Notes: generated from the sequence alone by a model not told the origin. A DNA stretch of 64,000 nucleotides from Vicinamibacterales bacterium (GCA_965200475.1 CBDAUL010000004.1:71303-135302), one strand, 5' to 3'; shown: positions 43,848 to 48,814, counted from the stretch's first letter. Translations and numbers: made by a program.

Positions 43848-45962
43848 CTAGCTCACGCCGACAGGCTCGTCCTGCCGGGCCTTCCTGAGACCCTGGATCT
43901 GGACCACCGGAGGCGCCTCTTCCTTCAACACGTGCTGGCGGTAGAGCTGCTCCATCTGCCGGTGATAGGCGGCATCCTGGCCGTCGGCGCCGTTGCCGTT
44001 GCCATTGCCATTGCCCTGCTTCGCCGCCTCGCGAGCGGCCAGCTTCTCCTGCCGCGCGTTCTTGGCAATCCCCTGCTCATCGAGGTCGGTCTGGGCGCCG
44101 GCGGCGACCGCGGCCGGATCGAGGACGAGGCTGTGGTCGGTGGACGCCAGCGCCACCTGCTTGCCGCCGGCGAAGATCTCGTGCCGGCCGTGCTCGTCGT
44201 ACCACCTGGTGAGCGTGGCCGTCATGTGCATCTTCTCGATGATGTTCCGCCAGCCGATGCCCGTGTTGTACGCGCAGAACGAGATCTCGCCCTCCTGCGT
44301 CGCGTACGGGATGATGCAGCGCTCGGTGCGCCGGAAGTCGTAGTTGAACAGGTCCTGGAACCACATGCCGGCCACGAACAGGAAGTTCCAGCGGTCGGCG
44401 CGGCGCCTGGAGATGTCCTCCTCCGTCCGTTCGCCCGACACCTTGCCGTAGTCCCTGCCGGTCGCGCCGAAGGTCTTGTCGAACTTCTGCAGCAGATCGA
44501 GCAGCCGGAAGTGCTTCGGCGCCCGGAACGAGTCGTAGTTGCGCATCAGCGCCAGCGCCATCCCGACCACCGAGCGGAACCGGCCGCCGGCGGCGTCGTT
44601 GACCCGCGCGATGTCCTTCGCCAGCCGCTCGCCGTTGACGAAGGCGGTGAACGGCACCGCTTCCTTCGTCTCCTTGTCGATCATCACGGCCATGCCGACG
44701 CCGCAGTTCGGGTGGCAGCCGCAGTTGAGCTGTCCCCAGTCGGCCTGCGGGCCGTGCACCAGGTCCGCCCAGTCGGTGAACGTGCCCATGAAGGAGATCG
44801 GGAACCAGTCGCGCGCCGGCTCGCCGATGCCGGTCTGGTTCTTGACGTCGTGCGCCAGGTGCGACAGCGTGTAGCGCTGCGCCTTGCGCCGCTCGTCGGT
44901 GATCTCCTCGTCCCGGCCGGTGAACGATACGGGCTGGAACGACAGGAAGCTGATGGTCTTCGGGTTGTCGAGCGCGAACTGCACGACGCGGCCGACCTGC
45001 TCGTTGTTGATGCCGTTGAGGATGGTGATGACGGGCACGATGTCGACGCCCGCCTTGTGCAGGTGCTCGATGGCCTGCAGCTTGACGTCGAAGAGGTTGC
45101 CGACCAGGCGGTGCGAGTTGGCCGCGTTGCCGATGCCGTCGAACTGCAGGTAGGCGTAGCGCAGCCCCGCTTCCGCGGCGGCCTTCGCGAAATCGAGGCT
45201 CTTGGCGAACTCGATGCCGTTGGTGGCCGCCTGCACGCTGTTGTAGCCCACCTTGCGGGCGTAGCGGACCGCGTCGAGGAAGTACGGCGACATGGTCGGC
45301 TCGCCGCCCGAGAACTGCACCGACATCTGCCGCTTCGGCTTGATGGAGATCGCGTTGTCGAGCAGCGTCTTGATGTCGTCCCACGACAGCTCGTGCACGA
45401 ACCCGACCTGGTTGGCGTCCATGAAGCACGGGTCGCACATCATGTTGCAGCGGTTGGTCAGGTCGATCGTCAGCACCGAGCCGCGCCCGTACTTGATGGT
45501 GCTGCTGCCGTGGTTGTGCAGCTTCTCGTCGTTGTGCGCCCGGATGTCGCTGCCCGGGAACGACTCCTCGAGGTGGCGGAAGAACTCGGTGTCGATCGCC
45601 ATGACGTCCTCGAAGCGCCCGTGGAGCGGACACTCCTTGACCATCACGATCTCGCCGTCGCGCTCGATGATCTGCGCCTTGATCTCCCCCACCTTCTCGT
45701 TCAGGAGAATCTTGTAGTCCTTCTTGCCGTCGAGAATCTCCTGCCGCGCCTCGCGCACGCACTTGGGACACAGCGAATCGGTCTCGCGCGGCCACCCCAG
45801 GGGCGGCTTGACCTTCTCGCTCGACTTGAGCAACGGCCTTTCCGACCAGGACGGCGTGAACGACGGCCGCTGGTACAGCCTGTTCACCCCGTCGTAGACG
45901 ACCCAGGCCCCGGCGGCCGCGTACGACAGCCCCTTCTCGATGTATTTCACAGGCTTGTGCAT
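43848..45962 (-). CDS. Radical SAM protein of the Tes / GDGT-MAS (MJ0619) tetraether lipid synthase family
   Basis: N-terminal SLCPKC...KECPLHG; DLTNRCNMMCDPC; QFSGGEPT; ATNG; YLQFDG; FQPVSFTGR; HPNCG; MWFQD..NYD..R..RCIIPYAT...FCAYN, collinear with MJ0619 as I recall it. Confidence 0.88.
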   Translation of the reverse strand: MHKPVKYIEKGLSYAAAGAWVVYDGVNRLYQRPSFTPSWSERPLLKSSEKVKPPLGWPRETDSLCPKCVREARQEILDGKKDYKILLNEKVGEIKAQIIERDGEIVMVKECPLHGRFEDVMAIDTEFFRHLEESFPGSDIRAHNDEKLHNHGSSTIKYGRGSVLTIDLTNRCNMMCDPCFMDANQVGFVHELSWDDIKTLLDNAISIKPKRQMSVQFSGGEPTMSPYFLDAVRYARKVGYNSVQAATNGIEFAKSLDFAKAAAEAGLRYAYLQFDGIGNAANSHRLVGNLFDVKLQAIEHLHKAGVDIVPVITILNGINNEQVGRVVQFALDNPKTISFLSFQPVSFTGRDEEITDERRKAQRYTLSHLAHDVKNQTGIGEPARDWFPISFMGTFTDWADLVHGPQADWGQLNCGCHPNCGVGMAVMIDKETKEAVPFTAFVNGERLAKDIARVNDAAGGRFRSVVGMALALMRNYDSFRAPKHFRLLDLLQKFDKTFGATGRDYGKVSGERTEEDISRRRADRWNFLFVAGMWFQDLFNYDFRRTERCIIPYATQEGEISFCAYNTGIGWRNIIEKMHMTATLTRWYDEHGRHEIFAGGKQVALASTDHSLVLDPAAVAAGAQTDLDEQGIAKNARQEKLAAREAAKQGNGNGNGNGADGQDAAYHRQMEQLYRQHVLKEEAPPVVQIQGLRKARQDEPVGVS

Positions 45963-46047
45963 GTCGACTCCTTGCGGCCGACGGGGACAGGCGCCCCGCG
46001 GCCAAGCTTCCACGGCGGACAGGATAGTCGGGATCGGCCGCAAACGC

Positions 46048-47385: not shown

Positions 47386-48149
47386 GATACGCCGGCTCCC
47401 GGACGGCTGGCGTCCCGGCCCGCGCGCCGGCCGGTGCCGCCGTAGTAGACGCGCGCGAGCCGCTCCGGCGCGATGCCGAGGGCGTAGAGCGCGAGGATCA
47501 GCAGGTTGCCCGCGGTGCGGCGCACCCAGCCGTCGCGCTCCCAGCGGCGGGGCGACACGCGGATCGGCGCGCGCGGATAGACCATCCGTCCCCGGCGCCC
47601 CACGCGGCGCACCAGATCGACGTCCTCCATGAGCGGCAGCGGCCGGTAGCCTCCCACCCGCTCGAAGACGTCGCGCCGCACGAAGATCCCCTGATCGCCG
47701 TACGGCAGCCCCAGCCAGCGCACCCGCCACGCCACGCCGTGCTCCAGCAGCCGGGCCCGCCGCGCCGCGGACCGTAGCGTGAAGCGCAGGGCCCCGCCGA
47801 CGGCGCCCGGATCGCGCGCGATGCGTCCCAGCTCGGCCTGCCAGCCCGGCTCGGGACAGGTGTCGGCGTGCAGGAAGAGGAGCCAGTCGCCCCGCGCGAG
47901 CCGCGCGCCCGCATTCATCTGCTGTCCGCGGCCCGGGTCGCTCGTGACCCAGCGCACGCCCGCCGATCGCCGGCGCAGCGCCGCGATGCCGGAATCCCCG
48001 CCGTCGCCGTTGGCGACGATCACCTCGCCGCGCGCGGCGCCGCCTCCGCTGTCGCCCAAGCCCTGGGCGGCCAGGGCGTCGAGCAGCCGCGCGAGCTCCG
48101 GCGCGTCGTGCAGCACCGGGATGATGATGGAAACGAACGGGGAGCTCAT
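47373..48149 (-). CDS. GT2 glycosyltransferase, TIGR04283 (rSAM/selenodomain-associated) type
   Basis: VSIIIPV, GRGQQMNAGA, LLFLHADT, LPYGDQGIF, PLMEDV and SPRRWERDG motifs. Confidence 0.88.
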   Translation of the reverse strand: MSSPFVSIIIPVLHDAPELARLLDALAAQGLGDSGGGAARGEVIVANGDGGDSGIAALRRRSAGVRWVTSDPGRGQQMNAGARLARGDWLLFLHADTCPEPGWQAELGRIARDPGAVGGALRFTLRSAARRARLLEHGVAWRVRWLGLPYGDQGIFVRRDVFERVGGYRPLPLMEDVDLVRRVGRRGRMVYPRAPIRVSPRRWERDGWVRRTAGNLLILALYALGIAPERLARVYYGGTGRRAGRDASRPGAGVSCPG

Positions 48150-48814
48150 GCAGGGCTGTCCAACCCGAGGAAACCCGCGGTCTCCGTCCACAGGCGCTCG
48201 AGGCTGCCGCCGAGCTGATGGTCGTCGTCGAGCATCAACAGCCGCACGTGCGGCCTGCCGGCCGCGAACCGCTCCACCATCGCGGCGTCGACCACCTCGT
48301 CGCGCCGCCCGTGGCAGACCAGCGTGGGCACGCTCGTCCGGACCGCGAACGAATCGTAGCGGCCGGCGTCGTCGTACAGCGCGTAGTGCACCCGGCGCGG
48401 CGCGCCGCAGGCATGGTGCTGCATCTCCAGCCAGCCGTCCCGCCGCCAGCGCGCGAGCCCCGCCGCGCCGAGCGCCGGCATGCCGGCCCTGCCGAAGTCG
48501 AAGGCCGGCGCCAGCAGCACGAGCTTCTCGACGGGATGCGCCGGGGCCTCTCCCGCGGCCCGCTCCGCGAAGTGCAGGGCCACGAACGCGCCCAGGCTCG
48601 AGCCGATCAGGACGACCGGGGCCGCGGGCAGCCGCCGCAGCCGGGCGGCGACCTGCTGCAGCATCCGGGTCGTGGTCAGCGTGGCGAAATCGGGCTCGTT
48701 GAGGTCGGGACAGTGCAGGGTGAGGCCGTGCGCCGCCAGCCGGCCCGCGAGGTAGCGGGCCTTGGAGGACCGCGGCGACGACGCGAGGCCGTGCAGGTAG
48801 AAGAGGTGGCGCAT
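48146..48814 (-). CDS. YqiA/YcfP-family alpha/beta esterase
   Basis: YLHGLASSPRSSKA, GSSLG nucleophile elbow, HG..DEVV and DDHQL motifs. Confidence 0.88.
   Translation of the reverse strand: MRHLFYLHGLASSPRSSKARYLAGRLAAHGLTLHCPDLNEPDFATLTTTRMLQQVAARLRRLPAAPVVLIGSSLGAFVALHFAERAAGEAPAHPVEKLVLLAPAFDFGRAGMPALGAAGLARWRRDGWLEMQHHACGAPRRVHYALYDDAGRYDSFAVRTSVPTLVCHGRRDEVVDAAMVERFAAGRPHVRLLMLDDDHQLGGSLERLWTETAGFLGLDSPA

Follow-up and report, generated by a model that had tools for sequence, protein, structure and literature searches.

A Tes-like radical SAM gene abutting an esterase-glycosyltransferase triplet in a Vicinamibacterales genome: probably two separate units

[quoted passage not shown] The archaeal tetraether synthase, Tes/GDGT-MAS (MJ0619; PDB 7TOL and 7TOM; family model NF045702), is a homologue of an enzyme of the radical S-adenosylmethionine (SAM) type that is encoded in a Vicinamibacterales genome (GCA_965200475.1, CBDAUL010000004.1:71303-135302), where its gene stands directly behind genes for an esterase and two glycosyltransferases. 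The stretch of DNA that was analysed, 64,000 nt in all, is referred to as the window; coordinates are positions in the window and strands are as given there. The data suggest that two functionally separate units abut at this locus, which we consider probable: the Tes-like radical SAM gene on the one hand, and a sugar-transfer triplet on the other.

Among bacteria, 456 Tes homologues have been reported, and acidobacterial ones were put forward as candidate enzymes for making brGDGTs (Zeng et al., 2022, PMC8941075). For Solibacter usitatus, which makes brGDGTs as well as trialkyl intermediates, a biosynthetic pathway was built on the Tes homologues found there (Halamka et al., 2022, PMC10087280). 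In these two papers, acidobacterial Tes homologues figure as candidates for the synthesis of brGDGTs or iso-diabolic acid; the window protein belongs to the same phylum and falls under the same hypothesis, with a candidate function. The archaeal enzyme serves a host with isoprenoid lipids, whereas the acidobacterial host makes fatty-acid lipids. For fatty-acid tails, coupling has been shown with a different radical SAM enzyme, Mss, in Thermotoga and Thermoanaerobacter (Sahonero-Canavesi et al., 2022, PMC13159169). Mss, the membrane-spanning lipid synthase of Thermotoga and Clostridia, performs the same tail-to-tail C-C coupling that is proposed here and is the only bacterial enzyme for which the activity was shown; Tes is described there as 'remotely related' to Mss, and no mss homologues were found in the acidobacterial genomes that the authors selected (PMC13159169). 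A June 2026 preprint on sponge symbionts assigned all sponge metagenome-assembled genomes with tes to Acidobacteriota, and elb-like gene clusters to Poribacteria and Acidobacteriota subdivision 6 (10.64898/2026.06.23.733905). No assay of any bacterial Tes homologue was found in our literature search.

Glycosidic brGDGT head groups occur in nature, and we know of no enzymes that make them. Two described systems are relevant to the sugar genes of the window. One is the set formed by the families TIGR04283, TIGR04282 and ArsS, which go by the name of 'rSAM/selenodomain-associated transferases' and all three of which are present in the host genome. The other is the pairing of a polyprenyl-phosphate-sugar synthase with a membrane glycosyltransferase of the GT-C fold, such as mycobacterial Ppm1 with PimE or MptB.

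Homology and metal sites of the radical SAM enzyme

The radical SAM gene (45962..43848, minus strand) encodes a protein of 704 aa. A first-pass annotation of the window had listed a series of motifs for this protein and had proposed homology to Tes/GDGT-MAS. Every one of the motifs was readable in the translation (CPKC, CPLHG, CNMMCDPC, QFSGGEPT, YLQFDG, FQPVSFTGR, CIIPYAT and FCAYN), and the homology extended over nearly the whole chain, with residues 93-578 aligned to 35-504 of GDGT-MAS (PDB 7TOL, E 2.8e-62). The Tes model NF045702 was the best-scoring family at 311.4 bits, under its cut-off of 450 bits, and the next family, TrsS, scored 202.6 bits, more than 100 bits lower. The Pfam families PF04055 (66.1 bits) and PF23545, a zinc ribbon (HMPTM, 52.1 bits), were also matched.

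Metal ligands were assigned by comparison of a 28-row alignment with the sites named by Lloyd et al. (2022, PMC9433317). Three of the four GDGT-MAS metal sites were kept in this alignment: the rubredoxin-like CX2C...CX2H iron site (C65, C68, C111 and H114, in CPKC...CPLHG); the CX3CX2C radical SAM cluster (C172, C176 and C179), which was conserved in 27 of the 28 aligned rows; and the C-terminal [4Fe-4S] cysteines (C420, C549 and C563), together with M533 and Y553, which by alignment only correspond to Met439 and Tyr459. The fourth site was lacking. The ligands of the N-terminal auxiliary [4Fe-4S] cluster of MJ0619 are given as C73, C77, C80 and a His (PMC9433317); at the C73/C77/C80 columns, the window protein has a gap, His and Ser, as do all eight other acidobacterial rows. 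Compared with GDGT-MAS, the window protein also carried an insert of about 23 residues in the rubredoxin-like domain, a leader of about 60 aa at the N terminus and a conserved C-terminal extension of about 125 aa.

To place the protein among its relatives, 1.84 billion protein cluster representatives were searched, which yielded 588 matches at E<=1e-30, and ten full-length matches were scanned against NCBIfam. The Tes cut-off was passed by P0186 (503.8 bits), P0187 (474.1 bits) and P0260 (584.0 bits), whereas P0203 (447.1 bits), P0135 (413.8 bits) and P0121, a clade-mate of the window protein (298.9 bits), scored under it. A quick maximum-likelihood tree of the 28 rows (IQ-TREE, midpoint root for drawing only) was split, with 100% support in the Shimodaira-Hasegawa-like approximate likelihood ratio test (SH-aLRT), into an 11-row clade that held all three cut-off passers and a 17-row clade that held the window protein and other cluster-less proteins. 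In the former clade, 10 of 11 rows had Cys at the C73/C77/C80 columns. Because of the score under the cut-off and the split in the tree, the radical SAM protein is regarded as a Tes homologue and not as a member of the Tes equivalog. The first-pass annotation had named a position outside the Tes clade as one ground for refuting its proposal, and this largely applied: the protein stood outside the clade of the cut-off passers and did not have the N-terminal cluster ligands.

Distribution and proposed function of the Tes-like clade

A total of 586 confirmed radical SAM relatives were recovered from species-representative genomes. The best 80 of these 586 loci were 73-86% identical to the window protein and were labelled Vicinamibacterales, Bryobacterales, Terriglobales, Solibacter, Blastocatellia and others; loci labelled Solibacter usitatus and Acidipila rosea had identities of 74-76%. 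The closest related records were Vicinamibacterales of the phylum Acidobacteriota, in agreement with the earlier attribution of the DNA to Acidobacteria. Among the sampled genomes, those with the gene numbered 55 of 61 for the order and 86 of 201 for the phylum (83 of 198 without the unpublished genomes G083, G106 and G202). Sponge metagenomes also contained the clade, in DNA as well as RNA libraries, and the window DNA itself was present in sponge-metagenome runs. The occurrence of the clade in sponge libraries fits the 2026 preprint, in which the sponge genomes with tes are those of Acidobacteriota (10.64898/2026.06.23.733905).

The host genome (5.89 Mb in 12 contigs, 98.7% complete; the window lies on contig C4) contained a single Tes-like match. 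In a few other acidobacterial genomes, extra shorter Tes-family paralogues were seen (35-39% identical, open frames of 530-930 aa), which occurred alongside the 700-aa form or in place of it (G055 C1:5106565-5107998 and C1:86938-88317; G092 C58:180424-182031). The 700-aa form was seen only in pieces in G055.

For its clade, the radical SAM protein adds nothing beyond what is in print: it is a new member of a published candidate clade. The gene is an intact, ordinary member of a highly conserved acidobacterial branch of Tes/GDGT-MAS. By homology, its enzyme most likely works with SAM-derived radicals and its C-terminal [4Fe-4S] cluster and couples two lipid tails at their terminal carbons; the expected products would be membrane-spanning lipids akin to iso-diabolic acid or brGDGTs. 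The enzyme has lost the archaeal N-terminal auxiliary [4Fe-4S] cluster and has gained the insert in the rubredoxin domain and the long C-terminal extension.

Some points weigh against this assignment. The lipid-coupling role of bacterial Tes homologues rests on homology, and these homologues have been described as being without experimental validation (PMC11868695; bioRxiv 10.64898/2026.06.23.733905). The window protein is under the Tes cut-off and has one cluster less than the archaeal enzyme. Under stringent criteria, Tes homologues were reported in 3 of 14 acidobacteria that produce iso-diabolic acid, and an alternative pathway was suggested (PMC13159169). The Tes-like enzyme could then catalyse another radical reaction on lipids (bridging, methylation or cyclisation) or act on a non-lipid substrate, the coupling in acidobacteria being left to another enzyme. 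Besides the low count among producers, such a role would agree with the gap between 311 and 450 bits, the separate clade, the missing [4Fe-4S]N cluster and the presence of the gene in only the 86 phylum genomes given above. It is less easily reconciled with the retention of the radical SAM cluster, the C-terminal cluster and the Met and Tyr residues in a full-length alignment with GDGT-MAS, with a lead of more than 100 bits for Tes over TrsS, and with the extreme conservation among the best 80 loci, which fits a core membrane function; moreover, S. usitatus has both Tes homologues and brGDGTs with trialkyl intermediates (PMC10087280). We therefore regard another reaction as a real but minor possibility and favour the coupling of lipid tails. 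As a member of the leading candidate clade, the gene would make a sensible subject for an assay. The data have no bearing on ether bonds: PF09989 (Ger/PlsA-type) had no match in the genome, which is 98.7% complete, in a search that did not extend to the elb and AGPS ether-lipid routes or to Mss.

The esterase-glycosyltransferase triplet

Three genes lie upstream of the radical SAM gene on the same strand: an alpha/beta-hydrolase of the UPF0227 type (YqiA-like esterase; 48814..48146, minus strand, 222 aa), which is the first gene of the sugar-transfer module; a glycosyltransferase of family 2 (GT2) that is here called GT2a (48149..47373, minus strand, 258 aa); and a GT87-like polytopic membrane glycosyltransferase of the GT-C type (47385..46048, minus strand, 445 aa). 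The ATG of GT2a overlaps the esterase stop by 4 nt (ATGA), and the GT-C start overlaps the GT2a stop by 13 nt. The GT-C gene begins with GTG, a start that is backed by an ATG-started orthologue in G010, a genome of the same genus. Between the GT-C stop and the start of the radical SAM gene lies a spacer of 85 nt (45963..46047, minus strand), in which AAGGAG precedes the ATG by 8 nt. The four co-oriented genes, with the first three overlapping, were arranged exactly as first described.

The esterase scored 72.6 bits against PF05728 (UPF0227; cut-off 21) and showed a GSSLG nucleophile elbow (GxSxG) in the translation. GT2a matched TIGR04283 with 217.3 bits (cut-off 182) over profile positions 1-221 of 221, which confirmed the family proposed for it earlier. 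The best hits of the GT-C protein were weak: GT87 (PF09594) at 21.8 bits, under the cut-off of 25, and MptB at 25 bits, under the cut-off of 40. Four GT-C orthologues gave GT87 scores of 21.2, 27.0 (L089), 18.8 and no hit, and the fusion protein P0082, described below, gave 28.0, so that two of these six sequences (L089 and P0082) passed the GT87 cut-off. Against the sequences in PDB, the GT-C protein had no match at E<=1.

Fusion proteins of other organisms, found with GT2a as query, tied the parts of the module to each other. P0001 (493 aa, 75% identical) combines GT2a with a second GT2 domain, GT2b, and many proteins of about 493 aa share this build; P0025 is a fusion of esterase, GT2a and GT2b; and P0082 is a fusion of GT2a, GT2b and a GT87-type GT-C. 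Many other proteins, of about 458 aa, join GT2a to DUF2064 under the source name 'rSAM/selenodomain-associated transferase 2/1'. None of the fusions found with the GT2a query included the radical SAM protein, and no search for longer forms of the radical SAM protein was made. GT2b was fused to GT2a in G029, a third genome of the genus, and was absent beside GT2a in the window and in G010; it has been lost from the window locus. A GT2b-like sequence is located elsewhere in the host genome (C11:287748-288530, 52% identical). For gene content, twenty GT2a loci were fetched besides the window, and in these 21 loci GT-C was found beside GT2a in 5, the esterase in 8 and GT2b in 3.

The triplet would be a trimmed copy of an uncharacterised sugar-transfer module, which in full would comprise the UPF0227 esterase, the TIGR04283 GT2 and a GT87-like GT-C, in many cases with a second GT2. 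By analogy with Ppm1 and its partners PimE or MptB, the full module of the relatives, with its cytoplasmic GT2 pair and GT87-like GT-C, is likely to load a lipid-linked sugar that is then transferred on the outside of the membrane, GT2b being the domain that would do the loading. The copy in the window departs from this model, as it is without GT2b, and its GT-C protein falls under the GT87 cut-off and has no PDB match.

Proximity of the sugar genes to the radical SAM gene

The first-pass annotation had proposed a glyco-tetraether locus, that is, a single pathway in which the radical SAM enzyme cross-links lipid tails, GT2 and GT-C add a sugar, and the esterase trims an acyl or protecting group. 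To determine how far the sugar genes stay with the radical SAM gene, tblastn at 1e-5 was run over 80 related loci, each with flanks of up to 8 kb. Within 8 kb of the radical SAM gene, GT-C was found in 1, GT2a in 2 and the esterase in 5 of the 80 loci. When the open reading frames (ORFs) were clustered all against all, the top neighbour family was common to 11 of 81 loci at most. The housekeeping genes for MoaA and the histidyl-tRNA synthetase HisRS were found in 4 and 3 of the 80 loci, respectively, and L004, L005 and L016 among these also kept the esterase or GT2a. MoaA and HisRS show an equally shallow synteny, and the proximity of the sugar genes thus reaches no further than that of the local backbone.

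The same comparison was made in the 61-genome sample of the order, with a threshold of E<=1e-40 for GT2a orthologues. These were present in 21 of the 61 genomes, namely 19 of 55 with the radical SAM gene and 2 of 6 without it; the remaining 36 of the 55 radical SAM genomes had no GT2a orthologue. In 11 of these 21 genomes, GT2a stood upstream of the radical SAM gene on the same strand, no more than 10 kb away. The gap between the two genes was 1.4 kb in G000 (the host genome) and G010 and 2.2 kb in G029, all of one genus, and it was 2.2-8.4 kb, with other genes in between, in G032, G045, G012, G030, G059, G011, G015 and G017. The two genes were 271 kb apart in G036 and on separate contigs in seven genomes. 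Direct adjacency of the sugar genes to the radical SAM gene was seen only in the three genomes of the window's genus. In G046 (97% complete), the esterase-GT2a pair and HisRS were present, with no match for the radical SAM gene or ArsS.

The genes between GT2a and the radical SAM gene in sister families included MsrP and MsrQ, which were recognised from their N-terminal sequences. Pfam identified two more, a pyridine-nucleotide-disulphide oxidoreductase and, divergent from the radical SAM gene, a flavin adenine dinucleotide (FAD) oxidoreductase of the DAO type; the others were likewise unrelated genes. MoaA (convergent), HisRS and the aspartyl-tRNA synthetase AspRS were found downstream of the radical SAM gene in the fetched loci. 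The relatives would accordingly share a slowly eroding backbone that runs from DUF309 through the glycosyltransferase module, MsrPQ or an oxidoreductase, the FAD oxidoreductase, the radical SAM gene and MoaA to HisRS and AspRS. The intervening genes are missing in the window's genus, and hence GT-C ends 85 nt before the radical SAM gene; we read the adjacency in the window as a loss of intervening genes in one genus.

The junction itself was also examined. A promoter and terminator scan of 41000-49600 gave no promoter-like site (0.3 expected) and two terminator-like sites (1.7 expected), none of them at a gene junction, and such a scan is uninformative for a GC-rich organism with a non-sigma-70 consensus. 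The spacer between GT-C and the radical SAM gene folded at -40 kcal/mol (z -0.48; 57 of 200 shuffles as good), which indicated no structured element. The same 41000-49600 interval was also compared with contigs from three RNA libraries and from one DNA run. The RNA-library contigs covered parts of all four genes; one X7 contig ended at 45999, and the summed contig depth of the RNA libraries was higher over the radical SAM gene than over the glycosyltransferase genes, whereas that of the DNA run was flatter. Contigs give no transcript ends, strand or level, their depth does not rank genes, conserved genes gather the contigs of relatives, and RNA libraries may hold DNA; for these reasons nothing was concluded on separate or joint transcription.

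Three observations speak against a full separation of the two units. The placement of GT2a upstream of the radical SAM gene in 11 of 21 genomes is far above chance; it was attributed to shared ancestry, and a loose functional link may exist. The genes of the window's genus lie at distances that would permit co-transcription, and one RNA-library contig (X8, 45726-46236) bridges the junction of GT-C and the radical SAM gene. These observations, together with the two overlaps and the 85-nt gap, the same adjacency in the other two genomes of the genus and the natural occurrence of glycosidic brGDGT head groups, count in favour of a single pathway of the four genes. Such a pathway is nevertheless improbable in our view: the sugar glycosyltransferases are all but missing near the radical SAM gene in the 80 loci, GT2a occurs independently of the radical SAM gene (19 of 55 against 2 of 6), unrelated genes intervene in the sister families, MoaA and HisRS show an equal depth of synteny, the fusions join glycosyltransferase parts to each other, and the window copy has lost the putative sugar-loading domain. 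Equally little probability is given to an operon of this lineage, formed through the loss of intervening genes and transcribed from one promoter, for a glycosylated membrane-spanning lipid, or, more broadly, to TIGR04283 GT2 enzymes, whether near ArsS or near a Tes-like gene, acting on the products of radical SAM enzymes. Of the glyco-tetraether proposal, the Tes homology and the acidobacterial context stood, while the treatment of the four genes as one pathway, and the conserved neighbourhood that would go with it, did not; in most relatives the glycosyltransferase and esterase genes are not syntenic with the radical SAM gene, which the first-pass annotation had named as another ground for refutation. 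Adjacency alone is no ground to annotate the neighbouring glycosyltransferases as lipid head-group enzymes.

Association of the sugar-transfer module with ArsS

The host genome carried ArsS (TIGR04167, 420 bits, C11:529688-530638) and TIGR04282 (142.5 bits, C8:365652-366233), both above cut-off. GT2a, on C4, is beside neither of them, and in the window it is flanked by the esterase and GT-C instead; the 'arsenosugar set' is dispersed over contigs in this sponge-associated host. GT2a was present in 9 of 11 ArsS-positive and 12 of 50 ArsS-negative genomes of the order sample, a contrast that overstates the link between GT2a and ArsS because related genomes are not independent. GT2a was located 2-5 kb from ArsS in G003, G013 and G016. 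We take the association of GT2a with ArsS as a tendency and not as a test.

One explanation of this tendency is that GT2a, with or without its neighbours, acts in trans with ArsS and TIGR04282 in an arsenosugar-type chemistry unrelated to membrane-spanning lipids. The scores above cut-off for all three families, the uneven distribution, the three genomes with GT2a near ArsS and the name of the GT2a+DUF2064 fusions are consistent with it, but 12 of the 21 GT2a-bearing genomes had no ArsS match, the three genes are on three different contigs of the host genome, and the contrast between genomes is inflated by their relatedness. The family name, in addition, was derived from neighbourhood and not from an assay, and no paper joining the TIGR04283 glycosyltransferase with ArsS or arsenosugars was found in our literature search. 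This explanation is considered unlikely, although it is given more weight than a single lipid pathway. As part of the two-unit reading, fusion proteins link esterase, TIGR04283 GT2, second GT2 and GT87-like GT-C into one module; the module goes with ArsS, and the presence of the triplet would track ArsS rather than the Tes-like gene.

Neighbouring genes and other features of the window

Six Vicinamibacterales loci, but not the window, have a FAD-dependent oxidoreductase gene that lies upstream of the Tes-like gene in divergent orientation (L016 6577-7731, L092 4364-5527, L093 15116-16279, L096 14925-16073, L098 10593-11516 and L099 5849-6994); the L093 protein matched PF01266 (DAO) with 164.8 bits. 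This oxidoreductase is a possible partner of the radical SAM enzyme.

Downstream of the radical SAM gene, at a distance of 45 nt, the window contains a gene for a TonB-dependent receptor (41085..43802, minus strand, 905 aa, PF00593 and PF07715), which is a neighbour outside both units. It is inserted between the radical SAM gene and a gene for a GDSL-lipase autotransporter (within 38059-43802; PF00657 and PF03797), and it was not present at this position in G010 and G029. In these other two genomes of the genus, a gene of 639-666 aa directly follows the radical SAM gene (L088 13284-15284; L089 3215-5134) and was taken as the putative counterpart of the autotransporter gene. The stretch 40054-41084 held no convincing ORF.

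At the opposite flank of the locus, a DUF309 gene (48971..49375) is divergent from the esterase gene, and between the start of the esterase gene and DUF309 lies a copy (48839..48937, no strand; family D4) of a GC-rich intergenic repeat of about 95 nt. The repeat was found in both orientations, singly or in tandem arrays of two to three, at 19505-19703, 36461-36749, 37892-38062, 48839-48937 and 50124-50412, and it resembles an element of the REP (repetitive extragenic palindromic) or MITE (miniature inverted-repeat transposable element) type. In all four sequencing runs, the contig depth in the bin of the 48839-48937 repeat was 754-7352, compared to about 1-60 in the neighbouring bins, and the repeat is therefore of very high copy number in those sponge metagenomes.

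No Rfam match at gathering thresholds and no tRNA (ARAGORN) was found in the whole window. A minus-strand ORF of 940 aa (11660-14482) contains five to six tandem repeats of 441-444 nt that are 77-96% identical, and it encodes a repeat-domain protein. Two neighbouring minus-strand genes of 679-698 aa (230-2326 and 3340-5379) have stretches in common, 3107 nt apart and with an identity of 94-100%; the pair is a recent tandem duplication. The region 24001-28000 had a GC content of 0.63-0.65, compared to about 0.72, and a 300-nt direct repeat at 24167 and 24736 that was 96% identical; it may be acquired DNA.

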